Positions 1 through 19,046 of a stretch of 64,000 bases of DNA are shown in pieces. The notes under the pieces are model-generated. The model searched no databases and was not told the origin of the DNA. It saw nothing but the letters and a program-made list of their open reading frames with translations. The DNA is taken from assembly GCA_003056165.1 (NCBI GenBank), contig LSNR01000014.1, positions 6,408-70,407 of the forward strand, written 5' to 3'. The stretch's first letter is position 1; each line of letters opens with the position of its first letter. The translations under genes and the position numbers were made by a program. The stretch is from Parcubacteria group bacterium M6-OD1-3. GTDB lineage: Bacteria > Patescibacteriota > Minisyncoccia > Moranbacterales > UBA9337.

Positions 1-236
1 TTTGCCCCAATTTCGTAGGTGTGTATGTAAAGTGTAGTTTAGAAGAATGCAAAAGAAGAGATGTCAAGGGAATGTATGCAAAAGCGGAAAGAGGAGAAAT
101 AGGGGATTTTACTGGAATAAATGATCCATATGAAAAACCGAGCAGAGCAGAGGTTGTAATTGACACAGAAAAAGGAAATATAAAAAACAGTCTGAAAAAA
201 CTAAAAAAGTTATTAGGTCAGTCAATTAAAGATTAA
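1..236 (+). CDS. cysC: adenylylsulfate (APS) kinase, C-terminal fragment (5' end outside window)
   Basis: Translation DVKGMYAKAERGEIGDFTGINDPYEKP matches the conserved C-terminal motif of APS kinases. The ORF is open to the window edge. Confidence 0.65.
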   Translation, partial: CPNFVGVYVKCSLEECKRRDVKGMYAKAERGEIGDFTGINDPYEKPSRAEVVIDTEKGNIKNSLKKLKKLLGQSIKD

Positions 237-970
237 TTATAGTTGTATGTATCGATGATGTTTCTTAAGTGATTCTCTATTAGTGTTATTTGTTCTTTTG
301 TTAAATCTTCTTTATAGCTATCAATAGAGCCCTTTCTGAAGGCTCCTTTTATAACTACTTTTGTTTTATTATTATTTTCCGAGATGGCATTGTCTATTTC
401 TACTTGAGAAGTTGTTACTTTTAAAAACCTTAATATTTTCTCTATTTCTTTTGTTGCGTTTGTATGCAAATCTTCATATTTTATGCAATGGATATTTGGA
501 TGTGACAAAAAAGGATATATCGCATCCATATATTGTTTGTATTTTTTAATTGCGTCATCCAATGAGTTGGCAAAATTAAAAAAAGTTGAATGAATCATTG
601 ATGATATTACAGCCCTTGGATCCCGTTGAATATATATAATTTTAGCGTTTGGAAATAGTTTTAAAATTTTATCAATGTGTAAAATATGTAGGGGTGTTTT
701 TTCTATCAATATTTTGTTGGGGAATTTTTTTTGTTTTTCTTCTATAACTTTTTTTATCGTAGTGTTGTCGTAATTTATAAATGCTCCGGTTTCAGATGTT
801 TTAAATTTGCCATTGTGGCTAATTTTGATTGTGGGTTCAAAATCTTCCTTAAGTAATGGTACTATGTTAGAAAAAGATGTTAACAGTCCCCAAAGCCAAG
901 TTGTTCCACTTCGAGGAGCACCAATTATAAAAACGGGAGATTTGTTTTTTTTAAATATTTTTAAAAACAT
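233..970 (-). CDS. PAPS-dependent sulfotransferase family protein
   Basis: N-terminal FIIGAPRSGTTW is a 5'-PSB-like PAPS-binding motif. The gene is convergent with the APS kinase gene and overlaps its stop by 4 nt. Confidence 0.65.
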   Translation of the reverse strand: MFLKIFKKNKSPVFIIGAPRSGTTWLWGLLTSFSNIVPLLKEDFEPTIKISHNGKFKTSETGAFINYDNTTIKKVIEEKQKKFPNKILIEKTPLHILHIDKILKLFPNAKIIYIQRDPRAVISSMIHSTFFNFANSLDDAIKKYKQYMDAIYPFLSHPNIHCIKYEDLHTNATKEIEKILRFLKVTTSQVEIDNAISENNNKTKVVIKGAFRKGSIDSYKEDLTKEQITLIENHLRNIIDTYNYN

Positions 971-1052
971 AGCTAAACTGATTATGCCTCGTATAGTATT
1001 TTAACTGTATTAAACAAAGTATAACACACTATTTTTTTTTGCAATAGTATGT

Positions 1053-1090
1053 TTCAGGGCTTATTTGCTAGCTAGCAAATAAGCCCTGAA
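1053..1090. terminator. perfect 38-bp palindrome (ttcagggcttatttgctagctagcaaataagccctgaa); hairpin, possibly a terminator or operator
   Basis: The sequence is identical to its own reverse complement. It lies between the sulfotransferase start and the end of the FG-GAP gene. Confidence 0.5.
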
Positions 1091-1256
1091 TGTACAGTAG
1101 ATATTATTATTCATTACTTAAGAACTGCCACTCTTTTTTGTACGATGAAAAAATACAAAGCAGTCCAATGTCCGAATTTTTTTCCGGTTAAACCTATTTT
1201 TCAAAAAAATAGGCAGGTCGCACATTGTGCATACCTGCCTATAAAATAGATTGAGG

Positions 1257-2561
1257 TCAATAAAGATCATAGCTTGTGTTAAGCCAAATCTTCTCTGACT
1301 TAAACGGTGCTGTGTCGCCTGAACCATTTGGTTCATATTTAAATACGACGAAGTTTCCTGTGGAATGTTGGGCATGGATGCCAAACTCTATCTTTTTGTT
1401 ATTGAAAATATCAAAGTCTTTAACCAGGACATAATCAAATGCTCCAGCTGTGAAATACTGGACAACTTCATTCACAAAAGATGTTCCAGTTGATTTGAAA
1501 GCGGAAAATGCTCCACCAGTGAAGTTGAAAAACATTAGATCAACCTTCTTATCCCCATTATAATCAATAGCCTCTGGATAGGCATCAGAACTGCCTCCTT
1601 GACACCACACGCCTCTATTTCTCCATGTGGTGCCGTCCGATTCCCAAACAACTAAGTTTTTTGTACTAGAAGCATATAGTGCCAAATCTTCATATCCATT
1701 CCCTGTGAAATCTCCAGTAAGACTTTTCTGGAAAATATTGTTTCCAGAAAATGTTCCAAATCCTCCATTAGGAATTGATGTAGAATTAAAACTACTTCCA
1801 TTATTGAGAAAAACCTTAATAATGCCGTTCGTATAGTCGATAACGGCGATGTCGTCTTTCGCTCTGTCGCCTCCGGTTTCGTCCGCCTTATTAAAGTTTA
1901 AAGCAATAATATCGTCGATATTTTGCATATCGACTGATACTAGCCACTCTTGTTTCGGCAGAAATGATCCGACAAAGGTTGAACTATCTTGAGGTATTAC
2001 CCAAACTTTCCCAGTTGTTTTACCGATAACTACAAACTCCTCATATGAAGAGCTGAACCTTCCTGATGCAAATATTACTGGCTCATCAAAGATATAGTCT
2101 TTGTTTGCAACAATATTTTCCAAGTAATTTGTATCGGTAATGCTCAGGTTTCGAGCACTCTTGAGAGACAGCGTTGTCTCACTTGTTTGCGTTTCAATCA
2201 GAGCTGGCACAAGAGTTATCTCATTTGAAGAACCAGATTCTTCACCATTTGTATTGTAGCTTTTTATGACGCAGTAACAATTTTTTTCCGTTGCTGTGTC
2301 TAATGTGACGGAAATAGTGTACTCGATATTGGACATATCGGTTATATTTCCTGTCGGAATATCTAAGGGATTACCCCCCGTGATGTCTATTCCTGTATAT
2401 GGTCCACCACGAGTTTTTCCACAGTACACTTTGAAACCTTCAACTCCTGTGGTACTGCTTATGTCCCATTGGAACGATACATCGATTGTTTTTAGTTCTG
2501 CAAATGAATTTGTTGCAGAAAGAAAAAGAATGAATGTTGCGATGATGATCAGTGTTCTCAT
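1257..2561 (-). CDS. secreted protein with FG-GAP/VCBS-like repeats (signal peptide MRTLIIIATFILFLSATNSFA)
   Basis: N-terminal signal peptide. Repeated DxxGDGxxD-like motifs (DFTGNGYEDLAL, DYNGDKKVDLMFFN). Confidence 0.45.
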   Translation of the reverse strand: MRTLIIIATFILFLSATNSFAELKTIDVSFQWDISSTTGVEGFKVYCGKTRGGPYTGIDITGGNPLDIPTGNITDMSNIEYTISVTLDTATEKNCYCVIKSYNTNGEESGSSNEITLVPALIETQTSETTLSLKSARNLSITDTNYLENIVANKDYIFDEPVIFASGRFSSSYEEFVVIGKTTGKVWVIPQDSSTFVGSFLPKQEWLVSVDMQNIDDIIALNFNKADETGGDRAKDDIAVIDYTNGIIKVFLNNGSSFNSTSIPNGGFGTFSGNNIFQKSLTGDFTGNGYEDLALYASSTKNLVVWESDGTTWRNRGVWCQGGSSDAYPEAIDYNGDKKVDLMFFNFTGGAFSAFKSTGTSFVNEVVQYFTAGAFDYVLVKDFDIFNNKKIEFGIHAQHSTGNFVVFKYEPNGSGDTAPFKSEKIWLNTSYDLY

Positions 2562-2691
2562 TTTGTCCTCCTAGTATTATTTTTTGTCAAGATGCTGGTT
2601 GTTGTAAATATAACAAAGAATGTTTTATTTTACAATACCTTGCTTATTTAGTATAATTAAATCATTGAAAAATATAGCATAAATAACTCAT

Positions 2692-3984
2692 ATGAATATA
2701 TTAATAACAAATCATCATTTGCACGATTTTGCTGGTTCGGAATTATTTACTTTCAATTTGGCTATAGAATTAAGGAAAAGAGGTCATCATATTTTTTGTT
2801 TTTCTCCATTGCTGGGTAATATTGCTGATAAAATTAAAGAAAATGGAATAACTGTAATAGATAATATTCGTGATATTGAAAATAAAAAAATAGACATCAT
2901 TCATGCTCAACATAATACGACAGCAATTCTCGCCAGATCAATTTTCCCCAATGTTCCGATTGTTTTTACAGTGCATGGTATTCTACCAGAGTTGGAACAG
3001 CCACCATCTATTGATTTAGATATTGCCAAATTTGCGGTTATTAGTGAGGAAATTAAAGATTATTTGATAAATAATTATTCCATAAAAAAAGAAAAAATCA
3101 GATTGATAAGAAATTTTGTTGACTTCAATCGTTTTAAGCCGACGAAAATTATAAACAAATCCCCAAAAAATCTTCTTGTTTTAAGTAACCACTACATAGA
3201 CAAGACAAAAAACATCATAGAGAATGCCTGTAATGAGTTTAATATAAAATTTGAACATATCGGTTTACCGGAAAATTCGGTTGAAAATGTTGAGGATTAT
3301 ATAAACAATGTGGATATCGTAGTTACTCTGGGGCGAGGAGCTATTGAGGCTATGGCTTGTGAGAGGAATGTGATTGTATATGACATGCATGGAGGAGATG
3401 GTTATATTGATGAAGATAATTTTTTTGAAATTAGAAAAAATAATTTTTCCGGCAGAAGATTTAAAAAAGAATATTCGGTGGAGGATTTTAAAAAAGAAAT
3501 TTTAAAATATAATCCATTAACTGCCAAAAAATTAAGGGAAATTGTGTTAAAAGAGAATTCGGTAAAAAATATTGTTGATAATCTAGAATCAATTTATAAG
3601 GAAGTTTTGAAAACTGGAAAACAAATAAATTCTCAAATAAAACGGGGGGAACTTTTTTTGGAGATTCATTTTTTGGAGCAACTTTTCGCTAGAAACAATA
3701 AAGAGAAAATAAAACAGATGAATGAATCCAATCGATTAATTGAAGTGAGGGATAATGAGATAAATAAATTAAATCAAATAATCCAGCAGAAAAATTTGGA
3801 AATTCAAAAAAATGGTCAAATAGCCGATTTAGACCAAATAATTAAACAATTAAATGAAGAAAATAAAAAATTGAATTATGTGATTCAGCAAAAAGAACAA
3901 GAAATTGAAAATATGAAAAAGTCTAAATTTTGGAAATTGAGAAATAAATATTTGAAATTGAAAAAATATGCAAAAAGAAAATAG
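2692..3984 (+). CDS. glycosyltransferase family 4 (GT1/GT4 fold) with C-terminal coiled coil
   Basis: N-terminal GT4-like Rossmann region. The C-terminal 100 aa are heptad-rich (IQQKNLEIQKNGQIADLDQIIKQLNEENKKL). Confidence 0.65.
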   Translation: MNILITNHHLHDFAGSELFTFNLAIELRKRGHHIFCFSPLLGNIADKIKENGITVIDNIRDIENKKIDIIHAQHNTTAILARSIFPNVPIVFTVHGILPELEQPPSIDLDIAKFAVISEEIKDYLINNYSIKKEKIRLIRNFVDFNRFKPTKIINKSPKNLLVLSNHYIDKTKNIIENACNEFNIKFEHIGLPENSVENVEDYINNVDIVVTLGRGAIEAMACERNVIVYDMHGGDGYIDEDNFFEIRKNNFSGRRFKKEYSVEDFKKEILKYNPLTAKKLREIVLKENSVKNIVDNLESIYKEVLKTGKQINSQIKRGELFLEIHFLEQLFARNNKEKIKQMNESNRLIEVRDNEINKLNQIIQQKNLEIQKNGQIADLDQIIKQLNEENKKLNYVIQQKEQEIENMKKSKFWKLRNKYLKLKKYAKRK

Positions 3985-4002
3985 AAAATACATATTGGTT
4001 TT

Positions 4003-6348
4003 TTGACTGAAAGAATGTTACGTGGTTTTGGTGTTGATGTTGTAGTTGATAAAACCGCTAGAGAGTTAGTGAAAAATGGTTTCAGAGTAACGGTTTTTTG
4101 TATTAATGCAGATGGAAACTTTAATAATGATGAATATCAAATTGTGCAAGTTAAGTCATCACTGCATCATAATCCGTTTAAAACTGAACGAAGTGCGAAA
4201 AAGGCCTTGGAAAGATTAAATATTGAGGAAGATATTGATATTTGGATTGCAGAAACATATCCATTTTTTATGGCAACACAAATAATGGATAGGCCGGTTA
4301 TTGTAATTGATCATGGAGTAGCACAAACAAAAGGATTTAATATTATTAGACGAATTATTTTTGCTTATATAAAATTTGCTCATAATTATATCTACTTTAA
4401 AAAAGCAGATAGGTTAGTACATATATCAAAGTTTATTCGCTCTCTCACGCCAACTTTTTTAAGAAAAAAACAGTTGGTAGTTTATAATGGAGCTGATAAT
4501 TATAAGCACCCTACAAAAGACGAGATTTTAAGATTTAAAATGAAAAATAACATCAAAAATGATGATAAGATATTACTTTATGTAGGGAGAATAAATTCTA
4601 ATGATCAACCCTATAAAGGAACTGAGGAATTAGTCGGTGTTTTCAAAAAATTAAGAAAGAAATATCCAAGTTTAAAATTAATTATGGCTGGTTTCGGCAA
4701 TAAGAAAGATGGTATGTGGTTGAAAAGTGCAGGCATAATTCCGTTTTTAAATGCTGACGATAAGGACATTGCATTATTGTATTCAATAACTGATTGTTAT
4801 GTAACAGCATCAAAGTGGGAGGGATTTAATTTGCCATTAGTGGAGGCTGGACACTTTAGTGTCCCTTATGTTGCATATAACATTGGTGCCCATAAGGAGG
4901 TTGTAAATGATAAGTCTGGTTTTTTGGTTAATACTAAGAAAGATTTTATTTCTAGTATAGAAAAAATTATTTCAAATGAGAATTTAAGAAATAATATGTC
5001 TGAAAATGCCAGAAAAAATGCTGAAAGATTTATGTGGAAAAAAACGGGTTTGCGTTATAGTAATCTTATAAAAGAAGTTGTTGGTAAAAATAAGAAAAAA
5101 TATTCACAATATGATAAAGGAATGGTTGATATTATCACGCTTAATTATAATGGAAAAAAACACTTGAAACCATTATTTAATTCTTTGAAGGAACAAACAT
5201 ACGAGAATATACGAGTTACTATGGTTGATAATGGATCGAGCGATGGTTCATGTGAGTATGTTAAAAAAGAATTTCCATGGGTGAATTTAATAAGATCAGA
5301 TACAAATCTTTTTTTTAGTAGAGGAAATAATCTTGCTGTTAATAAAACTAAGGGGGAATATATATTCTTTGTGAATAATGATATTGTTGTTGAACCGGAT
5401 GCTATTCAAAATCTAGTTAATACGATTAATAAAAAAGGGAAATATAATATTGCTTCAGTGGCGGCAAAAATGCTTTTATTTAATAATAGGCGAGTTTTTG
5501 ATTCAACTGGTGTGGTTATCTTAAGTAATGGCGCGCCGTTTAATCGTGGAATTGGACAGATAGATATAGGTCAATATGACAAAGTAGAAGAAATATTTGG
5601 AGCTTGTTTTGGAGCGGTTTTAATAAGGAGAAATGTTTATGAAAAGTCAGTCGGACCATTAGATAACTCGTATTTTGGATATTTTGAAGATGTCGATTGG
5701 AATTACCGTGCTAGAATTTTTGGTTATAAATCTTATTTCTGTCCAAAAGCTGTTGTTTATCATGACCATTCAGCGACAAGTAAGAAAATGGGCTATGAGT
5801 GGAAATACTACTTAATTCATAGAAATTTTTTAAAAACTATTATAAAAAACTTTCAATTTAAGCGAATGATTTTGAAGGGTGGATATAAAACACTTGAGCT
5901 AATAAATCATTTGCGAAAAACCAAAGATAGGGAAAGAAAATTATCAATATTGAAAATATTACTTCATGTAACATATTCAATGCCACTTCTAATTTTTAAA
6001 CGATTTAGAATACAAAGAAAGCGCTGTGCTCCTGATATTGAATGTGTAAAGTTTAGTCAAGGTGAGCAATCTTTTTTTGATGCTGTTAATTATAGTCCAA
6101 TATTAACATTGGATACATTGCAAGCTATGTTTGCCAGATTAGATATGATTAAAAAATTTAACAATTTTGAAATATCAGATATCGTCTCACAAATAGCTTA
6201 TTTGAATGAAAGAAAAATGATGATGAATGAAAAAAATTGGGATACTCAAACAGAAAAGCTTATAAAATCTTTAGAAAGATATATTGGAAAAAGATATGTG
6301 GATAAGTTCATAAAAGCGGTTGTAATAGATAAAATTTGGAAAAAATAG
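4003..6348 (+). CDS. bifunctional glycosyltransferase: N-terminal GT4-like domain fused to a GT2 (family 2) domain
   Basis: GT4-like block (YVGRINSNDQ...EGFNLPLVEAGHFSVPYVA) followed by GT2 hallmarks (DIITLNYNGKKHL...MVDNGSSDGS...FVNNDIVVE). Confidence 0.7.
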   Translation: MTERMLRGFGVDVVVDKTARELVKNGFRVTVFCINADGNFNNDEYQIVQVKSSLHHNPFKTERSAKKALERLNIEEDIDIWIAETYPFFMATQIMDRPVIVIDHGVAQTKGFNIIRRIIFAYIKFAHNYIYFKKADRLVHISKFIRSLTPTFLRKKQLVVYNGADNYKHPTKDEILRFKMKNNIKNDDKILLYVGRINSNDQPYKGTEELVGVFKKLRKKYPSLKLIMAGFGNKKDGMWLKSAGIIPFLNADDKDIALLYSITDCYVTASKWEGFNLPLVEAGHFSVPYVAYNIGAHKEVVNDKSGFLVNTKKDFISSIEKIISNENLRNNMSENARKNAERFMWKKTGLRYSNLIKEVVGKNKKKYSQYDKGMVDIITLNYNGKKHLKPLFNSLKEQTYENIRVTMVDNGSSDGSCEYVKKEFPWVNLIRSDTNLFFSRGNNLAVNKTKGEYIFFVNNDIVVEPDAIQNLVNTINKKGKYNIASVAAKMLLFNNRRVFDSTGVVILSNGAPFNRGIGQIDIGQYDKVEEIFGACFGAVLIRRNVYEKSVGPLDNSYFGYFEDVDWNYRARIFGYKSYFCPKAVVYHDHSATSKKMGYEWKYYLIHRNFLKTIIKNFQFKRMILKGGYKTLELINHLRKTKDRERKLSILKILLHVTYSMPLLIFKRFRIQRKRCAPDIECVKFSQGEQSFFDAVNYSPILTLDTLQAMFARLDMIKKFNNFEISDIVSQIAYLNERKMMMNEKNWDTQTEKLIKSLERYIGKRYVDKFIKAVVIDKIWKK

Positions 6349-6387
6349 AATCTCTTAAGAAAACTTTTATTAGTTTCTATTCTTCTA

Positions 6388-7347
6388 TTAGCTTGGGACG
6401 TAATAGGCAATTCCTTCATAATCCCATGTGCCCGAAAGATTATTAATAATATTATCTCTTTCTGTTGTGCTGGTTGTATAAAAATGATTACCCTGAATTT
6501 TATTAAAAAATCTGTAGACAGCTGTAGAGTTACTTTGACTACTGGAAAATATATAGTAAGCAATTCCTTCATAATTCCAAGTAGGAAGATTGTTAATTAT
6601 ATTATCTTTTTCTGTGGAACTTGCGGTGTAAAAATGAAAACCGGTGTTGGTATTAAAAAAGCGATAAAGTGGTGTTGTATTATAAGCTTGATTCTGGTAA
6701 GCGTTGTAGGTAATTCCTTCATAATTCCATGTATTTGAAAGATTATTTATAATAGTATCTCTTTCTGTAGAGCTCATGGTGTAAAAATGGTTTCCTTGAA
6801 TTTTATTAAAAAATCTGTAGATAGAAACTTCGTGTGCATAAGTAACAGTTGCTCCAGTTATTGTTCCGGGAGTAAGAGCTACTGATAATTCATCCAAAAG
6901 TTCATTGACTCTTAGGGATAAATTTGTTGTTCCAGAGGTAAATCCGGAAGTTGTTTTGGCGTGAATTGTGGCTATATGGACATCGTTTCCGTTGATACCT
7001 GTTGCATTTGCACCAGTAAACCACAAATGGCCATTAGTTATATCAGTGCTGTTAACCGTCAATGGGTCGAAAATTGAAGCATCATCCCCGACACTGACAC
7101 CTTCAGTTCCTTGAGTAGTATCAACTGTTACATAGGAAGCAGTAAAATCAAAATACATATTAAATCCGCCCAAATTTTTTCCTCCAGTATCTACATGGAC
7201 TTCAATATCGAAATTGGTGCTTGCGTCAACGTTTTGATTTGTTGGTGTAATCCAAACATCTCCCTCAGATGCTTGGGTAATACTAAAAATTCCAAGCGTT
7301 GATATTATTGATATTACAACAATTGCAATAGTGTATATCCTTTTCAT
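6388..7347 (-). CDS. secreted protein: cohesin-like N-terminal domain plus three copies of a roughly 50-aa YRFFN...HFYT...ER repeat (DUF5648-like)
   Basis: Signal peptide MKRIYTIAIVVISIISTLGIFSITQA. Three near-identical repeats YRFFNKIQGNHFYT[MT]S[ST]TERD.IINNLS.TW.YEGI. Confidence 0.45.
   Translation of the reverse strand: MKRIYTIAIVVISIISTLGIFSITQASEGDVWITPTNQNVDASTNFDIEVHVDTGGKNLGGFNMYFDFTASYVTVDTTQGTEGVSVGDDASIFDPLTVNSTDITNGHLWFTGANATGINGNDVHIATIHAKTTSGFTSGTTNLSLRVNELLDELSVALTPGTITGATVTYAHEVSIYRFFNKIQGNHFYTMSSTERDTIINNLSNTWNYEGITYNAYQNQAYNTTPLYRFFNTNTGFHFYTASSTEKDNIINNLPTWNYEGIAYYIFSSSQSNSTAVYRFFNKIQGNHFYTTSTTERDNIINNLSGTWDYEGIAYYVPS
6400..6840. repeat. three tandem 150-bp DNA repeats inside the CDS (the repeat units above)
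   Basis: Near-identical stretches such as cc[ct]tgaattttattaaaaaatctgtaga recur at about 6494 and 6793. Confidence 0.7.
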
Positions 7348-7597
7348 ATTTTTTGTATGTTATTTTTTTTATTGACATTTAATATTTCTATATTGTCCTT
7401 CTTGCAACATAATAACACATTAATATTATAGCATAGTTTAAATTATCTACAATTTTTTAAATACTTACAAAAATGTCATATCTTAAATTTAAAAAATTTA
7501 AGTTCAAAAAGCTTGAAATTTTAAATTAATAATGGTATGGTTATAGTTAATATTGAAAAAATGTAGTTCTTATAAAATAAATTTAGGAGGATGTATA

Positions 7598-9133
7598 ATG
7601 GAATTTAGTCAGTTGATGAAAGAAGTTGGAGCAGTCGGTATTCATTTTGAAAAAATGATGCCGGAGATAGAAATAAAGGCAATGACCGGTTTCCCTATTT
7701 TGATAGTTGGCGAAACCGGAACAGGAAAGGAACTTGTCGCAAAACTCATTCATAGGATGAGTAAAAGAAGCGATAAGCCTTTACAATTTGTAAATGTTCC
7801 CGCTATTAATAATGGTGTATTTGAAAGCGAACTATTTGGTCACGAAAAAGGTGCTTTCACGGATGCATCTAAAGCACGAAAGGGTGTTATTAGAGAAATT
7901 CACGGTGGAACTATCGTCTTGGATGAAATTGGCGATATGTCGCTAGAAACTCAAGCCAAAATTCTTCGCTGGCTGGAAAGTGGAGAGATTAAACCAGTTG
8001 GTTCTGATAGAGTGTTATTTGTAGATGTCAGAGTTATTGCCTCCACAAATAAAAAATTGGAGAATCTAATTGAGTCTGGTTTATTTAGACAAGACTTATA
8101 TTATAGACTAAGTTCATTGTCTATAGAAGTATCGCCTCTTAGAAAAAGTCAGGAGGCAATACTTGATCTAACAAAGTATTTTGTGGATAAAAATAAGAAA
8201 CATTTCGTTGATTTTCGTGGGAATTCCCTAGATGATCCGAGCGGAAGTGAACTCGCTAAGTTATTTAGCGAGTTGATTGAAGCAAATGCTCATTGTTCTA
8301 ATTTCTTATCTGGTAATGCCAGGGAATTGGAAAGTGTGGTGAAAGAATGGCTATTCAAGAGAGCTCTTAACTATAATAAAGAGAAAAATGCAGAAAGTCT
8401 TTTATCTACATATTATCTTGATAATAATAGTAGGTCTTCATCGAAACCAGAGTCGTCAAATGATGATAATACTAAAGTCTGTTGTGCAGATGAAGAGTCT
8501 GCTCTTGTAACTAATATTCGCAAAGCACTTATTTTATGTAAATGGAATACGAAAAATGCAGCTATATTACTGGAGTGTTCTGAAGAAGAGTTGCAAAAAA
8601 TAATCGAGGATAATAACATTTTTGTTGAGGAGGGAGATAATTATTCCATTAGCAGAGAGGATGTGAAACCAATCAAATCTTTCTCAACAGATAATCAACA
8701 TCAAATAGATGTCTTTCAAAATGCTAGCTGGCTGAAAAAAATCAACTGCAATTTTGCTGCACCCTCCAATAATGAATTGAAGGAGATCCATGATATTTTA
8801 GAGCGGAAAATTGCAGAGGTGGAGAAAGAAGTCTTTCAGATGGCAATTAACCATTTTAATGGTAATCTAAGAAAGGCTACAAGAAGCTTGGGAATAGGAG
8901 ATAAAAGGTTGAAGGCAGGACTGGAAAAATATAACATTTCTGCGGTTTCAGGTGTTCAATTGGAGGCTAATCCTGGTCCGCTAAACGAAATTCTTCTTAC
9001 TGAGGAGAACAAGTTGATTAAATTTCTTTTGATAAAAAATATGACAGCCAAAAATATTGCAAAAATTCTTGGTTATCACATTAATGCGGTTTATTGTAGG
9101 ATAAAGAGATATAATCTTAAGGAGGAAGAGTAG
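7598..9133 (+). CDS. sigma-54 interaction-domain (bEBP-like) AAA+ transcriptional regulator without a receiver domain
   Basis: Walker A GETGTGKE, then ESELFGHEKGAFTDAS (a variant of the GAFTGA loop), an arginine finger region, and a C-terminal Fis-type HTH plus a second HTH-like segment. RBS AGGAGG sits 8 nt upstream of the ATG at 7598; the ORF track start at 7553 lacks an RBS. Confidence 0.7.
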   Translation: MEFSQLMKEVGAVGIHFEKMMPEIEIKAMTGFPILIVGETGTGKELVAKLIHRMSKRSDKPLQFVNVPAINNGVFESELFGHEKGAFTDASKARKGVIREIHGGTIVLDEIGDMSLETQAKILRWLESGEIKPVGSDRVLFVDVRVIASTNKKLENLIESGLFRQDLYYRLSSLSIEVSPLRKSQEAILDLTKYFVDKNKKHFVDFRGNSLDDPSGSELAKLFSELIEANAHCSNFLSGNARELESVVKEWLFKRALNYNKEKNAESLLSTYYLDNNSRSSSKPESSNDDNTKVCCADEESALVTNIRKALILCKWNTKNAAILLECSEEELQKIIEDNNIFVEEGDNYSISREDVKPIKSFSTDNQHQIDVFQNASWLKKINCNFAAPSNNELKEIHDILERKIAEVEKEVFQMAINHFNGNLRKATRSLGIGDKRLKAGLEKYNISAVSGVQLEANPGPLNEILLTEENKLIKFLLIKNMTAKNIAKILGYHINAVYCRIKRYNLKEEE

Positions 9134-9254
9134 TATTCTCTTGCTGAGTATAATAAAAACAAAAGGGTTAAACTGTTAAGTCAGTTTAGTCCTTTTTTAA
9201 TTTCAAAATATAAAATGATGCAAAGGATAATACTAGATAATAGTTGGCAAAAAT

Positions 9255-9280
9255 AAAACCGCTATAAATAGCGGTTTTTT
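9255..9280. terminator. bidirectional rho-independent terminator (aaaaccgctataaatagcggtttttt)
   Basis: GC-rich stem flanked by an A-run and a T-run. It lies between convergent genes (the regulator and rpmE). Confidence 0.7.
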
Positions 9281-9332
9281 GCAAATATTTTAACAACAAC
9301 TGTAAACATTTTGATAGTGTGGTTGTGCGAAA

Positions 9333-9644
9333 TTATTTTGCAGTTTTTTTAATTGAGCTAAGATTTTTTTTAGCGGAAGATTTGAGTACTTTAGTTTTTT
9401 TGACCGGTTTAGCTGATTTTTTTAAAGCTTTCCTTACTTTGTCCGATTTTTCAGTAATTTTTTGGAAGCGTTCCATTCGTCCAGCTGTGTCAATTACTTT
9501 TTTATCTCCAGTGAAGTACGGGTGACACATTGAGCAAATTTCTGTCTCAATTTTTTCTTGTGTAGATCCAGTTTCAAGAACTGCTCCGCAAGCACATTTA
9601 ATTTTTGCTTTTGGATAATAATTCGGATGAGTATCTTTTTTCAT
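9333..9644 (-). CDS. rpmE: 50S ribosomal protein L31 with K-rich C-terminal extension
   Basis: MKKDTHPNYYPKAKIKCACGAVLETGS...CSMCHPYFTG. Confidence 0.85.
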   Translation of the reverse strand: MKKDTHPNYYPKAKIKCACGAVLETGSTQEKIETEICSMCHPYFTGDKKVIDTAGRMERFQKITEKSDKVRKALKKSAKPVKKTKVLKSSAKKNLSSIKKTAK

Positions 9645-9719
9645 AGTATTTTTGAATTACAATTTTTTATAATATATATTCCTTAATCAATGGAGAAATA
9701 CTAGCACATAAAAAAATAA

Positions 9720-9747
9720 TTGACAAGTGTTGCAGTTCTGATATACT
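9720..9747 (+). promoter_or_regulatory. sigma-70-like promoter TTGACA-16-TATACT, about 400 nt upstream of rpsB (long leader)
   Basis: Match to the -35/-10 consensus seen directly in the sequence. Confidence 0.45.
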
Positions 9748-10143
9748 GTTTTATGTAGTTCATATTGCTTTTGGCATATGGATTGCTCAGACCCTATCCA
9801 AAAACTCACCACACTTATTAAAAATTAAGTTTGCCAATTAAACATCGAAATTTCTGTAAAAAATTATTCAAAACTCGTCAGAATATATTAATATTCTTTC
9901 TCATTTTTTACAATTTTTTCCTAGAAATTTTTTCGTTTTAACCAGGCATGAATTTTCGGATAGGTTCTTAAAAAATAAACATGTTTTTCTAGACTCATTC
10001 CTGTCCGAATCTTGTTTAGGTCGGATTATGAGTTTTGGCTTTGATAAAATATATTAATATTATTATTAAAGATTGAAAAACAGGTGTTAATAATAGATTT
10101 TATTATGGAAGGAATTCCTAGAAATCTTTAATAAGGAAAAAAT

Positions 10144-10911
10144 ATGATTAAAGAAAAAAAGACGTCTCCTGCGGGAGAAAAGAAAGGTTTGAAAAAAAAA
10201 CCTAAAAAAGATAAAGGAGCTGTTAATGTGGACTTAACAAAAACAGAGATAGACATTCGAGAAATGTTAAAATGCGGTGTTCACTTTGGACACAGTAAAT
10301 CACGCAAAGATCCTCGAATGGATAAATACATATTTGGATTAAAGCAAGGAATAAATATTATTGATTTGCAAAAAACCGAAGAGAAATTAAAATCAGCTAT
10401 CGATTTTATTGAAAAACTTAAAAAAAATCAAAAGCAAATTCTTTTTGTGGGAACAAAAAAGCAAGCAAAACTTTTAGTTAGGGCTGTTGCTAAAGAGGCT
10501 GAAATGCCCTACATTGAAGAGCGTTGGTTGGGCGGAACATTTACAAATTTTTCAGTTATTAGAAGAAGGGCGCAATACTTGAAAGATTCTCAAGAAAAAA
10601 TGAAAAAAGGAGGATTTAATAAGTATACTAAACTGGAGAAATTAAAAAAGAGCGAAGAATTGGAAAAATTGGAAAAGAGAATGGGGGGAATCAAGGCTAT
10701 GCGAGAATTGCCTGGGGCGGTTTTTATTGTAGACATTAAAGCTGATGAAATAGCTTTAAAAGAGGCTATCAGTGCTAATATTCCAGTTGTTGCATTAGTA
10801 GATACAAATGTAAATCCAGAAAGGGTTGATTATCCAATTCCGGCAAATGATGATGCTACTTCCTCAGTAAAATTAATGTTGGAATACATTGGAGCGACAA
10901 TTGTTAAGTAA
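10144..10911 (+). CDS. rpsB: 30S ribosomal protein S2
   Basis: CGVHFGHSKSRKDPRMDKYIFG...IIDLQKT and the rest of the S2 core. Confidence 0.9.
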   Translation: MIKEKKTSPAGEKKGLKKKPKKDKGAVNVDLTKTEIDIREMLKCGVHFGHSKSRKDPRMDKYIFGLKQGINIIDLQKTEEKLKSAIDFIEKLKKNQKQILFVGTKKQAKLLVRAVAKEAEMPYIEERWLGGTFTNFSVIRRRAQYLKDSQEKMKKGGFNKYTKLEKLKKSEELEKLEKRMGGIKAMRELPGAVFIVDIKADEIALKEAISANIPVVALVDTNVNPERVDYPIPANDDATSSVKLMLEYIGATIVK

Positions 10912-10970
10912 ACAAAAAATAATCAATAGCAAGAGTTCTTAAAAAAGAAACCCCCTATTATTTATTGTAA

Positions 10971-11564
10971 TTGTTAATTAAAAATATGTTAGAATTAATT
11001 AAAAAAATAAGACAACAAACAGGTGCTGGGATGGTTGATATTAAGAAAGCCTTAGAAGAAGCTGGTAATGATGAGAAAAAAGCGATTGAAATTCTTCGTA
11101 AAAAGGGTCAAAGCAAGGCTGTTAAAAAAGCTGAACGAGAAGCTAGTGAAGGAGTAATCGGTTCGTATATTCACTCCAACGGAAAAATTGGAGCGATGGT
11201 AAAAGTTTATTGTGAGACTGATTTTGTCGCACGTAATGAAGAATTTCAAAAATTAGCAAAAGATATGGCAATGCATATCAGTGCGATGAATCCACAAGTT
11301 TTAGATCCGAAAGATGTATCGGACAAATTGGTTGACAAAGAACGAGAAATTTGGGTAGAACAATTGAAAAATGAAGGAAAACCAAAAGAAATTATGCAAA
11401 AAATTATGGAAGGAAAAGAAAAGAAATTTAGAGAGGAAATTTCTTTAATGACACAACCTTTTGTTAAAAATCCGGAAATGACAATCCAAGATTTGGTTAC
11501 TGAGGAAATTGGAAAAATTGGAGAAAATATTAAAGTTGGAGATTTTTCCAGATTTGAATTGTAA
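10971..11564 (+). CDS. tsf: elongation factor Ts
   Basis: LIKKIRQQTGAGMVDIKKALEEAGNDEKKAIEILRKKG (UBA-like N-terminus) plus the EF-Ts core. Sits in the conserved rpsB-tsf arrangement. Confidence 0.9.
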   Translation: MLIKNMLELIKKIRQQTGAGMVDIKKALEEAGNDEKKAIEILRKKGQSKAVKKAEREASEGVIGSYIHSNGKIGAMVKVYCETDFVARNEEFQKLAKDMAMHISAMNPQVLDPKDVSDKLVDKEREIWVEQLKNEGKPKEIMQKIMEGKEKKFREEISLMTQPFVKNPEMTIQDLVTEEIGKIGENIKVGDFSRFEL

Positions 11565-11615
11565 AATATTATTGGCAGGAGACGGTAAAATGAAAATAGC
11601 TTAAATCAAACAAAT

Positions 11616-12422
11616 ATGTTTAAATATTTAGTTAATTTATATGGTTGGGGAGATGCCAGCATTTGTTCTAGTCGAGCGGAATATAAAAAAGGTAACCAAA
11701 TAATAGCAGAAGATGAAGGTGGAAAAATGTTAGGAAAAATTAGCAAAGAAATAAGTTCAGATGTTGAACAAAAAAGATATCAACTATATGATAAGGGTGA
11801 ACGATTGACAGTTGTTAGATTAGCAACAGAGAAAGATTTAGAAAAATTTGAAAAAAATTCTAAAAAGAGAAATAGCATTTTAAAGCGTTGCCGGAAAGAA
11901 GCAAAGAGAATGAATTTAGAAATGAAATTTGTAGATACTTGTATTACTTTGGGAAAGGGTGTGGTGATTATTTCGTTTATTGCTGATGGGCGAGTTGATT
12001 TTAGGCAGTTGGTTAAAAATTTATCCAGAGTATTTCATTGTTCCATTAAAATGCATCAAATTGGTTCCAGAGATGAAGCGAGAAAATTGGGTGGGTGTGG
12101 TGTTTGTGGAAAGGAATTGTGTTGTTCAAGTTTTTTGGGAGAAATTCCAAGTATTTCCACTGAAATGGCAAAAATTCAGCAGGTGTCGCAAAGAGGATCG
12201 GATAGAATATCAGGAGTTTGTGGTCGGTTGCTTTGTTGTTTGTCTTATGAAGTGGGTCAATATCGGGAAATGATGAAAGGAATGCCAGAAATTGGTAGTA
12301 AAATTAAAACGGAAAAAGGTGAAGGAAAAGTTGTAGAAATTAATCCATTAAAGCAAGAGATTAGGATTAGATTGGAAGATGTGAATGAATATGTGACTAT
12401 TAAAAAAGAAGATTTTAAATAA
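11616..12422 (+). CDS. PSP1 C-terminal domain protein (RicT/YaaT-like)
   Basis: Cys-rich conserved block GGCGVCGKELCCSSFLG...GVCGRLLCCLSYE. Confidence 0.65.
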   Translation: MFKYLVNLYGWGDASICSSRAEYKKGNQIIAEDEGGKMLGKISKEISSDVEQKRYQLYDKGERLTVVRLATEKDLEKFEKNSKKRNSILKRCRKEAKRMNLEMKFVDTCITLGKGVVIISFIADGRVDFRQLVKNLSRVFHCSIKMHQIGSRDEARKLGGCGVCGKELCCSSFLGEIPSISTEMAKIQQVSQRGSDRISGVCGRLLCCLSYEVGQYREMMKGMPEIGSKIKTEKGEGKVVEINPLKQEIRIRLEDVNEYVTIKKEDFK

Positions 12423-12443
12423 TAGTAGATTAGATTTGAAAGA

Positions 12444-13181
12444 ATGTTTTATTTATATTTTGTTTTACCGCCAGTTATAATTGTTGTTAGCTTAGCACTG
12501 ATAATATTTTTGGTGTCTAGAAAATCACTGGAAATCGAAAGAAAAATAACAGAAGATAAAGCCAATGCAATAAATAATGAAAGTCAACTAAGTATGGAAG
12601 TTAAAAGCAGAGGGTTATATTTTTTGGAAAAACTGGCTCATTGGTTTAAAATATTCTCATTAAAAATGCACAATTGGCTTGAGGAAAAATTAAAATTTAT
12701 AAAACAGAGAAAAGTTAAGATTGATTCAGATAAAAAAAGAAATGGTCAGGAGCATATTGATGACAAACAAAATATACAGAGAGAAGAAATTGAAAAAGAA
12801 AATGTTCGTCCAGAAGTTAAAAAGAAAAAACTGATTGAAAAGATATTTCAAAACATTAATGAAAAAAGAAAATTAAAAAAGGATGCGAAAAGAGCCAATG
12901 AAGCTGATGCTGAAAAGAAGGAAAGAATAGAAATTTTTAAACAGAAGGCGATGATTAGCAAAGAGGTTACCTACCCAGAAGAAAAAAAAGAAGAATTGGA
13001 AAATATTTTAATAGAAAGAATCGCTATTGATCCTCGTGATATAGAGGCTTATGAAAGACTGGGAGATTATTATATTAGTCAAAAAAATTATAAGGATGCG
13101 AAAGAATGCTATCGTCAGGTTTTGAAATTAAATCCCCGAAGTGTGACTATAAAGAAAAAGTTGGAAAATCTTATTAGATAA
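12444..13181 (+). CDS. membrane-anchored K/E-rich protein with C-terminal TPR-like repeat
   Basis: N-terminal TM helix, charged low-complexity middle, C-terminal YERLGDYYISQKNYKDAKECYRQVLKLNP. Confidence 0.35.
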   Translation: MFYLYFVLPPVIIVVSLALIIFLVSRKSLEIERKITEDKANAINNESQLSMEVKSRGLYFLEKLAHWFKIFSLKMHNWLEEKLKFIKQRKVKIDSDKKRNGQEHIDDKQNIQREEIEKENVRPEVKKKKLIEKIFQNINEKRKLKKDAKRANEADAEKKERIEIFKQKAMISKEVTYPEEKKEELENILIERIAIDPRDIEAYERLGDYYISQKNYKDAKECYRQVLKLNPRSVTIKKKLENLIR

Positions 13182-13254
13182 GCCGAAATAGCTCAATTGG
13201 TAGAGCAATTGTTTTGTAAACAATAGGTTACCGGTTCAAGTCCGGTTTTCGGCT
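13182..13254 (+). tRNA. tRNA-Thr (anticodon TGT)
   Basis: Manual cloverleaf: acceptor gccgaaa/tttcggc, anticodon loop tttgtaa, T-loop ttcaagt. Confidence 0.8.
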
Positions 13255-13264
13255 CAAGAAAGAT

Positions 13265-13292
13265 TGATAAAAAGTTGAAAGTGAGTATAATT
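13265..13292 (+). promoter_or_regulatory. promoter TTGATA-16-TATAAT driving the tRNA-Tyr/Thr block
   Basis: Consensus-like -35/-10 about 18 nt upstream of the partial tRNA copy. Confidence 0.5.
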
Positions 13293-13309
13293 AAAATATT
13301 GGGTCGGTG

Positions 13310-13325
13310 GCAGAGTTCATCCAAA
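13310..13325 (+). other. 16-nt duplicate of the tRNA-Tyr 5' end (gggtcggtggcagagt) followed by unrelated sequence; partial pseudo-tRNA
   Basis: Exact match to the first 16 nt of the full tRNA-Tyr 81 nt downstream. No T-arm follows. Confidence 0.6.
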
Positions 13326-13390
13326 GGCTGATATAGGTCATGCCCAGAAAGATTATCTTAAAATTAAGATTGGTTAGGTTAATTGAATAT

Positions 13391-13474
13391 GGGTCGGTGG
13401 CAGAGTGGTCAAATGCATCAGACTGTAAATCTGACGACTTCGGTCTACGGCGGTTCAAATCCGTCCCGGCCCAC
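13391..13474 (+). tRNA. tRNA-Tyr (anticodon GTA), long variable arm
   Basis: Anticodon stem-loop tcaga-ctgtaaa-tctga, long variable arm, T-arm ggcggttcaaatccgtc. Confidence 0.85.
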
Positions 13475-13482
13475 ATAAACCC

Positions 13483-13555
13483 GCCCGGGTAGCTCAGCTG
13501 GTAGAGCATTTCCATGGTAAGGAAAAGGTCACCGGTCCAAGTCCGGTCTCGGGCT
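13483..13555 (+). tRNA. tRNA-Thr (anticodon GGT)
   Basis: Acceptor gcccggg/ctcgggc, anticodon loop atggtaa. Confidence 0.85.
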
Positions 13556-13616
13556 CAGTAAATATTAAAAAGGTAGCTTATGGATAGTATAACTGTTCAA
13601 ATGTTACGACAATAAA

Positions 13617-13775
13617 ATGGCAAATGAAAAATTAGTTAGAATGAAATGTACAGAATGCAATAATATCAATTATTATACGAATCGAAACAAGAAAAAACTT
13701 AAAGAAAAATTGGAGTTAAAAAAATATTGTAAATTTTGCAGAAAACATACCGTTCATAAAGAATTGAAAAAATAA
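13617..13775 (+). CDS. rpmG: 50S ribosomal protein L33 (52 aa; below the ORF-track size cutoff)
   Basis: Translation [52 protein letters not shown] has the L33 zinc-ribbon CxxC...CxxC pattern. Confidence 0.85.
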
Positions 13776-13798
13776 ATTTTGCAAGAAGGCTGTTTTGC

Positions 13799-13906
13799 AG
13801 TGGAAAGTTAGAGTCAAGGCGGACCTGTCAAACTTTCTGTTAGTTTAATTGTAAGTTAGTGAAAAGTTAGATACAGGCGGGCTTGTCCGACGAAGCGAAG
13901 CGTAGG
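13799..13906 (+). repeat. conserved pre-tRNA element, copy 1 (gtggaaagttaga...caaggcggacctgtcaaactttctgttagtttaat...taagttagtgaaaagttaga)
   Basis: About 80% identical to the element at 47016..47100. Both immediately precede tRNAs that share an identical 19-nt 5' end. Confidence 0.6.
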
Positions 13907-13976
13907 CGGGTGTCGTATAGTGGTAGTACAGGAGTCTCCAAAACTTCTAGCGGGAGTTCGATTCTCTCCACCCGTG
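13907..13976 (+). tRNA. tRNA-Trp (anticodon CCA)
   Basis: Anticodon stem-loop ggagt-ctccaaa-acttc, T-arm gggagttcgattctctc. G1-U72 wobble in the acceptor stem. Confidence 0.7.
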
Positions 13977-13984
13977 CGGATTAA

Positions 13985-14011: not shown

Positions 14012-14084
14012 GGTAGGCAATTTAATAAGACTGAGTGGAGATTAGAACTTTTTAGCATATTTTTGCAGGTATGACATTTCTAAA

Positions 14085-17756: not shown

Positions 17757-19046
17757 TTATCTTCCAATGCCCTTGTAAATGACATTGAATTTTTTGATGT
17801 TGTTTTTATTTAGGCAATTTTTTCCATCAATAATCACTTTTACGCCGTTTTCTTTTAAGAGTTTTCCGTCGATAGTTTTAAATTCTTTATGATCTGTTAC
17901 TAAAATAATAGCATCTGATTTTTCTAGAAGTGTTTTTAATGATTTACAGGTGGATTTGTTTTTTAAATAAGGGTCAAAAGAGATTATTTCAGCTTTGTGT
18001 TTTTTGAGGGCATTAACAATTTCGTAATAAGGTGATTCGCGGTCATCGTCGACATTCGATTTGTAGGCAATGCCGGCAAGTCCGACAACGGTTCCGTTTA
18101 ATGGCATTTTTATTTCATTGAGTTTGTCTTGCAGTAATTCAACTGTATATTCCGGCATAGAATTATTTATTGTTCGAGATGTACGAAGAAATTTATGGTC
18201 AAATCCGGCTTGTTTGGCACGTTCAATTAGATAATAAGGGTCAACCGGAATGCAATGTCCGCCAATCCCACAGGAGGGATAATGTGCCATAAATGAAAAA
18301 GGTTTTGTTGCAGCTCCATCAATAACATCTTTGACATCAATATTCATCGCATCAAATGATTTTGCTAACTCGTTTACAAAAGCAATATTGATATCTCGAA
18401 AAGAATTTTCTACAACTTTACAAGCCTCTGCTTCGCGAATATGTTTCATCGGTTTTATTTTTCCATCAACAATCGACTCATAAAAACTCTGTGCTTTTTG
18501 CAAACCTTTTTTTGTAAACGCACCGACGACACGCGGAATATTTGTGACATTCCATTTTGGATCGCCGGGATTTATTCTTTCCGGGCAATGAGCGATGAAA
18601 ACATCTTGACCGATTTTATGTTTATGTTTTTCAAAAATTGGACGAACGACTTCTTCCGATACGCCTGGATTGACAGTTGATTCCAAGACAACAAGAGCTC
18701 CCTTTTTTAAATTTCCAGCAACCATTTCGCAAGCATTGCGAACTGGAGCAAGATTTGGATTATGAAAAGAATCAACCGGAGTAGGGACACAAATTAAAAC
18801 AATGTCTGCCTTTTTAATCTCTCGTTCATTTGTAGTGGCTTTGATTGGGAAAAGAGGAATTTTTTCTTTTAAAAAAGCATCTTCAATCGGTGATATTTTT
18901 TTATTAATTAATTCAACTTTATTCTTATCTAATTCAAGACCAATAACATCGTAACCTTGTTCTTTAGCTCGAATCGCTAACGGTAATCCTACATAGCCTA
19001 AACCGATGATACAAACAGTTTCTTTCTTTGAGTTTTTAGTTGACAT
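17757..19046 (-). CDS. nucleotide-sugar dehydrogenase (UDP-glucose/GDP-mannose dehydrogenase family; WecC/TviB-like)
   Basis: N-terminal NAD-binding CIIGLGYVGLPLA and the catalytic Cys region (FDAMNIDVKDVIDGAATKPFSFMAHYPSCGIGGHCIPVDP). Confidence 0.8.
   Translation of the reverse strand: MSTKNSKKETVCIIGLGYVGLPLAIRAKEQGYDVIGLELDKNKVELINKKISPIEDAFLKEKIPLFPIKATTNEREIKKADIVLICVPTPVDSFHNPNLAPVRNACEMVAGNLKKGALVVLESTVNPGVSEEVVRPIFEKHKHKIGQDVFIAHCPERINPGDPKWNVTNIPRVVGAFTKKGLQKAQSFYESIVDGKIKPMKHIREAEACKVVENSFRDINIAFVNELAKSFDAMNIDVKDVIDGAATKPFSFMAHYPSCGIGGHCIPVDPYYLIERAKQAGFDHKFLRTSRTINNSMPEYTVELLQDKLNEIKMPLNGTVVGLAGIAYKSNVDDDRESPYYEIVNALKKHKAEIISFDPYLKNKSTCKSLKTLLEKSDAIILVTDHKEFKTIDGKLLKENGVKVIIDGKNCLNKNNIKKFNVIYKGIGR

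Follow-up and report, generated by a model that had tools for sequence, protein, structure and literature searches.

Gene content of the locus

The DNA analysed here, called the window, is a 64-kb stretch from Parcubacteria group bacterium M6-OD1-3 (contig LSNR01000014.1), and its first 7347 positions carry a cluster of sulfation and glycan-building genes. Six open reading frames (ORFs) had been described there in an initial annotation made from the sequence letters. All six were recovered in the ORF list of window 1-7347, and their coordinates and Pfam assignments held (Table 1). They encode the end of an adenosine 5'-phosphosulfate (APS) kinase (CysC), a sulfotransferase (ST) dependent on 3'-phosphoadenosine 5'-phosphosulfate (PAPS), two glycosyltransferases (GTs) and two putative secreted proteins. 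The cluster had been thought to make a sulfated surface glycan. This proposal is supported by a Wzt_C domain encoded upstream of cysC, by the conservation of the cluster and by the adjacency and fusion of GT4 and sulfotransferase genes. The further suggestions of a glycoprotein product and of a part in attachment to host cells are speculative. The secreted proteins had been described as flanking the enzymes. Both do open with a leader of the basic-hydrophobic-AxA type, recognized by inspection, but the FG-GAP gene is internal to the cluster, with the sulfotransferase gene on one side and the GT4 gene on the other.

The window DnaK shares 90% identity with proteins that bear the name Candidatus Moranbacteria, and the top named matches were all from Moranbacteria or Parcubacteria. 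The GC content of the window is about 31% and the complete genome of a related Moraniibacteriota measures 1.29 Mb, in agreement with the small AT-rich genome supposed initially.

Table 1. Features of the cluster and related features of the window, with their positions, strands and supporting matches
Feature	Position	Strand	Evidence
cysC 3' end, 78 codons	1..236 (ORF 3-236)	+	APS_kinase PF01583, 4e-19, profile positions 101-152/152
PAPS-dependent sulfotransferase, 245 aa	233..970	-	Sulfotransfer_3 PF13469, 9e-31; Sulfotransfer_1 PF00685, 5e-22
Intergenic signals, FG-GAP gene to sulfotransferase gene	1053..1240	-	Hairpin + T-run ~1200-1240; palindrome 1053-1090; TGnTATACT-type -10
FG-GAP protein, 434 aa, putative secreted	1257..2561	-	FG-GAP_3, 30.1 bits, cutoff 26.9
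Sigma-70-like promoter match	2629..2657	+	TTTACA-17-TATAAT, 11/12; consensus match only
GT4 with coiled-coil stalk, 430 aa	2692..3984	+	Glyco_transf_4 PF13439
GT4-GT2 two-module glycosyltransferase, 781 aa	4003..6348	+	Glyco_transf_4 PF13439 + Glycos_transf_1 PF00534 + Glycos_transf_2 PF00535
DUF5648 protein, 319 aa, putative secreted	6388..7347	-	PF18885, 3e-41; three YRFFN..HFYT repeats
NDP-sugar dehydrogenase (UDP-ManNAc/UDP-Glc dehydrogenase type)	17757..19046	-	TIGR03026, 409 bits

The sulfation enzymes

The 5'-phosphosulfate-binding (5'-PSB) loop of the sulfotransferase is P19-R20-S21-G22-T23-T24-W25. Residues G22, T23, T24 and W25 are invariant in 45 homologues, and the loop aligns with the 5'-PSB loop of TPST. 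In the same set of homologues the segment E90-K91-T92-P93-x-H95 is invariant or near-invariant. A conserved 3'-phosphate-binding (3'-PB) motif, on which the assignment had been made to depend, was found at R116-D117-x-R119...S124; R116 and S124 are invariant, and 90% or more of the homologues have D117 and R119. The AlphaFold model (pLDDT 93.9, pTM 0.90) matches PAP/PAPS-bound sulfotransferases in the PDB, and CurM ST, TPST1/2, SULT2A1 and Stf9 were all returned by Foldseek with a probability of 1.00 and a TM score of about 0.6. The protein is identical in three independent assemblies or runs. By its motifs and predicted fold, it is a genuine PAPS enzyme. It has no signal peptide and is cytoplasmic.

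Assignment to a subfamily with profile models did not succeed: the curated NCBIfam sulfotransferase models gave no significant full-length match, only a sub-threshold NoeE fragment. Acceptor and subfamily were not told apart by PDB sequence and fold searches either, since TPSTs, cytosolic SULTs, CurM ST and Stf9 score alike. The nearest PDB sequence matches are human TPST1 and TPST2 (E ~1e-7). On this basis the enzyme could be a protein tyrosine sulfotransferase of the TPST/RaxST type, acting on a peptide or on the secreted Tyr-rich repeat proteins, and the DUF5648 repeats are rich in Tyr. We find this hardly credible. The similarity lies in the generic PAPS-binding core, and CurM ST, cytosolic SULTs and TPSTs are ranked equally by Foldseek. 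The enzyme is cytoplasmic, whereas the candidate targets carry Sec leaders. Moreover, its family is fused to GT4 glycosyltransferases, and the genes nearby encode an ABC-2 transporter of the glycan type that bears a carbohydrate-binding module (CBM).

The sulfotransferase gene converges on cysC, and the two stop codons overlap by 4 bp (233-236), as read from the sequence and as announced in the initial annotation. Upstream of the sulfotransferase gene, a perfect 17+17-nt palindrome, TTCAGGGCTTATTTGCTAGCTAGCAAATAAGCCCTGAA, was noted; it is also returned as a blastn self-match, is kept in L001-L003 and could be a terminator or an operator. Because this palindrome is accompanied by a hairpin with a T-run and by a TGnTATACT-type -10 element, the sulfotransferase gene would seem to form its own transcription unit; these signals were read by eye and were not listed by the consensus scanner.

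The complete cysC gene was obtained from L001, a 4.7-kb contig retrieved by an exact look-up of the sulfotransferase protein. Its DNA is 99.76% identical to window 1-4085 and reaches 600 bp further upstream. It contains an intact 177-aa ORF with the P-loop GLPCSGKTT, and the whole protein scores 195.9 bits against a TIGR00455 cutoff of 138.7. The gene had been described as a fragment and a pseudogene remnant had been envisaged. It is indeed truncated in the window, but by the window edge only, and shows no decay. The gene directly upstream of cysC in L001 encodes a protein whose 93-aa C-terminus matches Wzt_C (PF14524, 31.3 bits, cutoff 30.4). Wzt_C is a module by which the ATPase of ABC-2 glycan exporters binds carbohydrate. 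Further look-ups by exact protein gave contigs of 4.7 kb or less; for the sequence beyond the window's left edge, a scan of JGI metagenomes with an exact 43-mer gave no match, and a protein-anchored scan gave one distant GT2 match.

The glycosyltransferases

In the AlphaFold model of the 430-aa GT4 (pLDDT 95.4), a GT-B fold (residues 1-308) is followed by a single uninterrupted 89-residue helix (322-410), in support of the coiled-coil tail recognized initially. A terminal helix (412-429), KFWKLRNKYLKLKKYAKR, is basic and amphipathic, with a net charge of +9. The model was matched by Foldseek to the retaining GT4 enzymes 7mi0, MshA, HepE, BshA, PimA and WaaG, and residues G214, R215, G216 and E219 are conserved. 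The Pfam family Glycos_transf_1 was not detected in this protein. The spacer between the GT domain and SSKFWKLR varies from 40 to 121 residues across GT4 homologues (108 in the window, 82 in L086).

This C-terminal ending, S-S-K-F-W-K-[LI]-R after a coiled coil, was also observed in other proteins. It occurs at 3931-3951 in the window (GT4 residues 414-420), in L007 (12984-13865 and 13872-14648) and in L005 (8152-9258 and 2665-3135), and is common to GT4, TylF-like methyltransferase and TOD1/MUCI70-like GT proteins in glycan loci of the Candidate Phyla Radiation (CPR). Distant GT4 homologues have the variant S-x-S-W-R-x-T-A-P-x-R. From these occurrences, the ending looks like a shared membrane- or partner-docking element of coiled-coil glycan-assembly proteins.

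The GT4 and sulfotransferase genes are neighbours in four loci (window, L084, L085 and L086). They are directly divergent in L084 and L085, and the FG-GAP gene intervenes in the window and L086. Some GT4 homologues also contain a sulfotransferase domain of this subfamily in one polypeptide, where it may come last or first: P0287, P0290 and P0298 have the layout GT4-coiled coil-ST, and P0309, P0317 and P0342 the layout ST-GT4. With 29-30% identity to the window sulfotransferase, the ST domains of these fusions also carry its ETGxF and FRKG signatures. Other GT4 homologues are fused to radical-SAM/SPASM or tetratricopeptide repeat (TPR) modules. Owing to the GT4-sulfotransferase fusions (Rosetta-stone evidence), a carbohydrate, namely the product of the coiled-coil GT4, would be much the likeliest acceptor of the sulfotransferase.

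One of the fusions, P0309, is encoded on a JGI 3300042268 contig (L092, 10001-22070). Genes for a 1235-aa multi-GT protein and for TPR-GT2 proteins accompany it, and this group lies immediately upstream of a pair of flagellin genes together with fliS and fliD. This locus is apparently a flagellin-glycosylation island, and its gene content hints at sulfated flagellin glycans there.

The best sigma-70-like promoter match of the region lies in the 130-bp divergent gap before the GT4/GT4-GT2 operon. The second gene of this operon starts 18 nt past the GT4 stop codon and encodes the 781-aa GT4-GT2 fusion already reported; the three Pfam domains were found in one protein, in the order GT4, GT2 and a 130-aa tail. 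Its PDB sequence matches include BshA and other GT4 enzymes as well as the heparosan synthase GT2 domain. This architecture fits a candidate two-module polymerase for a disaccharide repeat.

Conservation in related loci

The whole gene set is syntenic in L086, which belongs to another metagenome-assembled genome. The order there is NDP-sugar dehydrogenase, DUF5648 protein, 801-aa GT4-GT2, GT4, FG-GAP-like protein, sulfotransferase, four inserted genes, cysC, Wzt (ABC_tran + Wzt_C) and Wzm, and the dehydrogenase gene directly adjoins the DUF5648 gene. Amino-acid identities to the window proteins are 84% for the dehydrogenase, 64% for the DUF5648 protein, 74% for GT4-GT2, 56% for GT4, 56% for the FG-GAP protein, 51% for the sulfotransferase and 71% for CysC. 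The Wzt C-terminus found in L001 is 41% identical to that of the L086 protein. With synteny of the whole set at 41-84% identity, the cluster is not a chance juxtaposition.

The four genes inserted in L086 between sulfotransferase and cysC (9665-13495) are absent from the window. They encode ExbB/MotA-like, ExbD-like, weakly transglutaminase-like and bacterial TSP3-repeat proteins.

Four further loci carry parts of the same set. L084 has the order GT4, ST, CysQ, CysC, Wzt with Wzt_C, Wzm and an S8 peptidase-DUF5648 protein. In the complete Moraniibacteriota genome (L007), a 1342-aa DUF5648 protein is followed by Wzm, Wzt, CysC, CysQ, an ST-like protein, a methyltransferase and GTs. L006 contains Wzm, Wzt, CysC, CysQ and sat. 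L085 contains sat, CysQ and CysC, a second sulfotransferase, GTs, the GT4 and ST orthologues and Wzm/Wzt. The order Wzm-Wzt(Wzt_C)-CysC is found in L007, L006, L084 and L086; L005 has Wzt-CysC, its contig ending inside wzt. Overall, at least six related loci of CPR type have the sulfation module beside Wzm/Wzt. The capability had been called uncommon in small AT-rich genomes, which is true in a relative sense only. Because L001 encodes a Wzt_C end beyond cysC, and related loci Wzt and Wzm, window 1-7347 is, by comparison of gene order, the right-hand part of a larger, probable surface-glycan locus that runs beyond the left edge of the window.

The NDP-sugar dehydrogenase gene of the window is probably a displaced member of the cluster, as judged from L086, and would supply a uronic acid. 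It is parted from the cluster by about 10 kb containing housekeeping genes, tRNAs and an insertion sequence (IS) fragment.

The best genome-collection match to cysC (72% identity) was found in L004, on a contig labelled 'uncultured Bdellovibrionales'. This locus encodes CysQ, CysC, a Sulfotransfer_2 protein and methyltransferases, with a Wzx-type flippase instead of Wzm/Wzt. The match could mean that the sulfation module was transferred horizontally, or that the contig was mis-binned.

The secreted proteins

The DUF5648 protein consists of a signal peptide (by inspection), an N-terminal domain of about 150 aa and a C-terminal DUF5648. The three YRFFN..HFYT repeats reported initially are this DUF5648, which is matched over the full profile with 141-144 bits (cutoff 25) and three motif copies. 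The description of the N-terminal domain as cohesin-like found no support: residues 27-175 matched no Pfam family at E<=1 and gave no PDB sequence match. DUF5648 has been described as a three-bladed (beta3-alpha)3 propeller and proposed to recognize O-antigen or cell-wall glycans (PMC12853789; bioRxiv 10.64898/2026.04.26.720912); it has been proposed as a glycan binder in Bacteroidales pore-forming toxins that target O antigen and in GH70 enzymes, and is a putative wall-binding domain of an endolysin. Secreted proteins bearing DUF5648 on varied payloads are encoded right beside the cluster in the window, L086, L084 and L007; the payload is an S8 peptidase in L084, and the L007 protein is the 1342-aa one mentioned above. 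Because proteins with such different payloads abut four related loci, the DUF5648 protein is probably a surface glycan binder or anchor, a role favoured by its genomic position over that of a substrate.

The FG-GAP protein has the leader MRTLIIIATFILFLSATNSFA, an N-terminal beta domain and FG-GAP/VCBS-type repeats. Its L086 orthologue occupies the same position, whereas L084 and L085 lack the gene and have GT4 directly adjoining the sulfotransferase. Among 1.84 billion representatives, only 2 full-length-type relatives were found at E<=1e-30, and the PDB search returned no relative of solved structure. The protein is essentially lineage-specific, and its link with the pathway is one of position.

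The presence of secreted-protein genes inside or abutting the cluster raises the question of protein glycosylation. Once exported, the glycan could be transferred to a protein of the S-layer, to a pilin or to the FG-GAP or DUF5648 protein; alternatively, a cytoplasmic protein could carry it from the start. The secreted proteins would then be substrates. The ST-GT4 fusion P0309, in its apparent flagellin-glycosylation island, points in this direction, as does one Moranbacteria GT4 homologue named WsbH by its depositor, a name which we take to stem from an S-layer glycan locus. Against this, annotation of the window revealed no gene for an oligosaccharyltransferase or O-OTase, the FG-GAP gene is missing from two of the related loci, and DUF5648, described as a glycan-recognition module and found on unrelated payloads, fits a binder better than a target. 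Glycosylation of protein is thus rather unlikely to be the purpose of the cluster.

A putative route for glycan sulfation and export

The reading that we favour, with moderate confidence, is that the locus makes, sulfates and exports a surface glycan by an ABC-transporter-dependent (Wzm/Wzt) route. CysC, whose enzymatic identity is clear, would convert APS to PAPS. From its architecture, the candidate GT4-GT2 polymerase would build the glycan on a lipid carrier at the cytoplasmic face of the membrane. In the predicted structure, the 89-residue helical stalk would hold GT4 off the membrane and the basic amphipathic end helix would lie on it. GT4 and the small cytoplasmic sulfotransferase would then jointly add a sugar and sulfate it; their coupling is shown by conserved adjacency and by fusions, and the chemistry is presumed. 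The finished polymer would be exported by Wzm/Wzt, Wzt_C probably reading a feature of the glycan. Finally, outside the cell, the neighbouring DUF5648 protein probably binds the same or a similar glycan, as its recurrent position and the literature suggest.

Several points weigh against this route. Motif search of ORFs and tblastn detected no sat, cysDN or cysQ in the 64-kb window or in L001, so that PAPS synthesis is not demonstrably complete in the source genome. The upstream extension that yielded the full cysC therefore gave no sat, and our confidence was held at its moderate level because the source genome shows no route to APS. Wzm and the ATPase part of Wzt are expected from synteny, neither being within the visible sequence. 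No initiating polyprenyl-phosphate glycosyltransferase (WecA/WbaP type), LytR-CpsA-Psr (LCP) ligase or O-antigen-ligase-like gene was found in the window by Pfam and NCBIfam annotation of about 40 further ORFs, which gave housekeeping genes only. Genes for initiating transferases are often encoded outside such clusters. Sulfotransferase homologues at or below 48% identity sit in mobile or unrelated gene contexts, so that the association with glycan loci is limited to CPR-type orthologues of at least 50% identity.

If APS is not made, the sulfation module would be non-functional or vestigial in the source genome and the cluster product an unsulfated glycan. The relatives L006 and L085 carry sat next to cysC, unlike the window and L001. 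We nevertheless regard a vestigial module as very unlikely. Only about 64.6 kb (window and L001) of a genome of about 1 Mb or more is in view. Both ORFs, cysC and sulfotransferase, are undamaged and keep every catalytic motif, and the sulfotransferase protein is the same in each of the assemblies or runs compared. L007, L084 and L086 likewise have no sat adjacent to cysC. Elsewhere, cysQ is present in L004-L007, L084 and L085.

Possible position of the sulfate on the glycan

Where the sulfate is placed on the glycan can only be inferred. Most likely, GT4 and the sulfotransferase form a chain-capping (terminator) module, sulfation of internal residues being nearly as likely. A cap may be expected because Wzt carries a CBM. 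In the window and L086 clusters, the sulfotransferase is the only non-GT modifying enzyme and GT4 the only coiled-coil protein, which is why this pair was taken as the candidate cap.

Sulfation of internal repeat-unit residues would follow the same pathway and give a polyanionic polymer with no cap. GT4 would then be an adaptor, side-branch enzyme or scaffold, and the Wzt CBM would read the backbone or something else. This is possible, if short of probable. L085 retains the orthologues of the sulfotransferase and of the coiled-coil GT4, but its Wzt has no Wzt_C, which weakens the idea that the Wzt CBM reads sulfate. The dedicated cysC, joined in relatives by cysQ and sat, suggests a substantial demand for PAPS, and the nearby or syntenic NDP-sugar dehydrogenase suggests an acidic polymer. 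The surroundings of the GT4-ST fusions also count against a dedicated terminator: one lies by flagellin genes, one in a multi-GT cluster and two (P0298, P0287) among unrelated neighbours. Wzm/Wzt was expected near these fusions and was found beside none of the four contexts, which lowered the terminator reading. Since some of the fusions lie outside ABC-transporter loci, the GT4 and sulfotransferase pair would be a general unit that adds a sugar and sulfates it. The heptad signal in the GT4 stalk is, in addition, only moderate. On the other side, a Wzt CBM goes together with a coiled-coil terminator in the capped systems of the literature (PMC11231755), and neither the window cluster nor that of L086 contains another candidate terminator enzyme.

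A bolder version of the capping module was also considered, in which sulfate is a new chain-terminating chemistry: GT4 would add the capping sugar, the sulfotransferase would sulfate it and the Wzt CBM would read this end, and the phosphate-free polyanionic wall polymer would dock DUF5648-tagged proteins. As a whole this is doubtful. If true, it would be the equivalent, in CPR episymbionts, of teichoic acid and its anchored proteins.

Other features of the window

The rest of the window is composed of housekeeping genes (S2, DnaK/GrpE/HrcA, PBP2, Dxs, SMC, RNase J, Ddl, Obg, L19 and nine tRNAs). Compared with L086, about 10 kb (7553-17700) are inserted between the DUF5648 and NDP-sugar dehydrogenase genes. 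This segment contains a sigma-54-type activator without receiver domain, L31, S2, four tRNAs, an rve integrase fragment (14111-14662), an M15 peptidase and Ddl, and it points to a rearrangement that may have been mediated by an IS. The activator (7553-9133) was ruled out as a cluster member, being absent from the syntenic L086 locus. It is a 526-aa protein with a sigma-54 interaction domain, HTH_8 and a second C-terminal helix-turn-helix, and no rpoN was seen in the window. To our knowledge, sigma-54 regulons are seldom discussed for CPR.

Two other genes were noted. The SMC-like ORF at 43078-45444 has 788 aa and matches two separate stretches of the 1181-position SMC model; it may be a shortened or split SMC. 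At 25499-26407, an N-terminal NUDIX domain (PF00293, residues 21-137) is fused to GrpE (143-301).

Comparison with known systems

In capped ABC-transporter systems, the terminator is placed at the far end of a coiled-coil ruler, a membrane-associated amphipathic helix is at the other end and the cap is read by the CBM of Wzt (PMC11231755). The window locus resembles those of Escherichia coli O9a and Klebsiella pneumoniae O3 (WbdA, WbdD, Wzm/Wzt-CBM), and of K. pneumoniae O12 (WbbB), O4 and O7 in the C-terminal carbohydrate-binding domain of Wzt and the multi-module polymerase GT. Like the polymerase-terminator proteins of these O-antigen systems, the window GT4 combines a catalytic module with a long helical stalk of variable length and a basic amphipathic end helix. 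The chemistry is different: known terminators are methyltransferase/kinase pairs or Kdo transferases, whereas the window has a GT4 with a separate PAPS-dependent sulfotransferase. The window locus also differs in its embedded dedicated cysC and in its CPR host without lipopolysaccharide (LPS), and its cap is a candidate only.

Sulfated surface polysaccharides with dedicated sulfotransferases are found in rhizobia (LPS, K-antigen and Nod factor; LpsS, KpsS, NodH, NoeE) and in cyanobacteria (the sulfated exopolysaccharide synechan). As in the window and its related loci, the genes for cytoplasmic PAPS-dependent sulfation of a carbohydrate go there with those for polysaccharide synthesis and for PAPS supply (cysC, sat and cysQ). 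The window differs by its sulfotransferase subfamily (Sulfotransfer_3, ETGxF and EKTPxH), its CBM-bearing ABC transporter, its coiled-coil GT partner and its lineage. A closer gene order is found in the ABC-2 O-antigen cluster of Aeromonas salmonicida, where a hypothetical gene with a sulfotransferase domain lies between wzt and a multi-domain coiled-coil polymerase/terminator of the WbbB type (PMC4483657). The likeness, a sulfotransferase-domain gene near wzt and a coiled-coil protein, is one of gene order, and no sulfate is known in this O antigen.

For DUF5648, an analogy is offered by wall-polymer anchors. S-layer homology (SLH) domains bind pyruvylated secondary cell-wall polymer (SCWP), and choline-binding repeats bind teichoic acid. 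DUF5648 is likewise a repeat module that ends diverse secreted proteins, and its genes lie beside a polymer locus. By comparison with SLH and choline-binding modules, its link to a sulfated glycan rests on gene position in four related loci.

CPR bacteria, or Patescibacteria, are abundant and mostly uncultured episymbionts whose surface chemistry is almost unknown. Full-text literature searches gave no account of sulfated glycans or sulfotransferases in CPR, the 2019 terminator census (Mann, Kimber, Whitfield) being outside their coverage. Moranbacteria would devote scarce coding capacity to a dedicated PAPS supply and an ABC-transporter-type glycan machine, and a sulfated surface polymer is a concrete, testable prediction for them. 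Three hypotheses can be carried to other organisms: GT4 and sulfotransferase, fused in other phyla, as a general sugar-plus-sulfate module; sulfate as a glycan cap; and DUF5648 as an anchor or lectin of such a polymer.

Both sulfated bacterial polysaccharides and the polymerase-terminator paradigm are already known. What differs here is the coupling of a sulfotransferase to a coiled-coil GT in a CBM-Wzt system with embedded cysC, recurrent in CPR. The cluster is real, coherent and moderately unusual; it adds to a mode of glycan assembly that is already well understood and does not amount to a system of a new kind.

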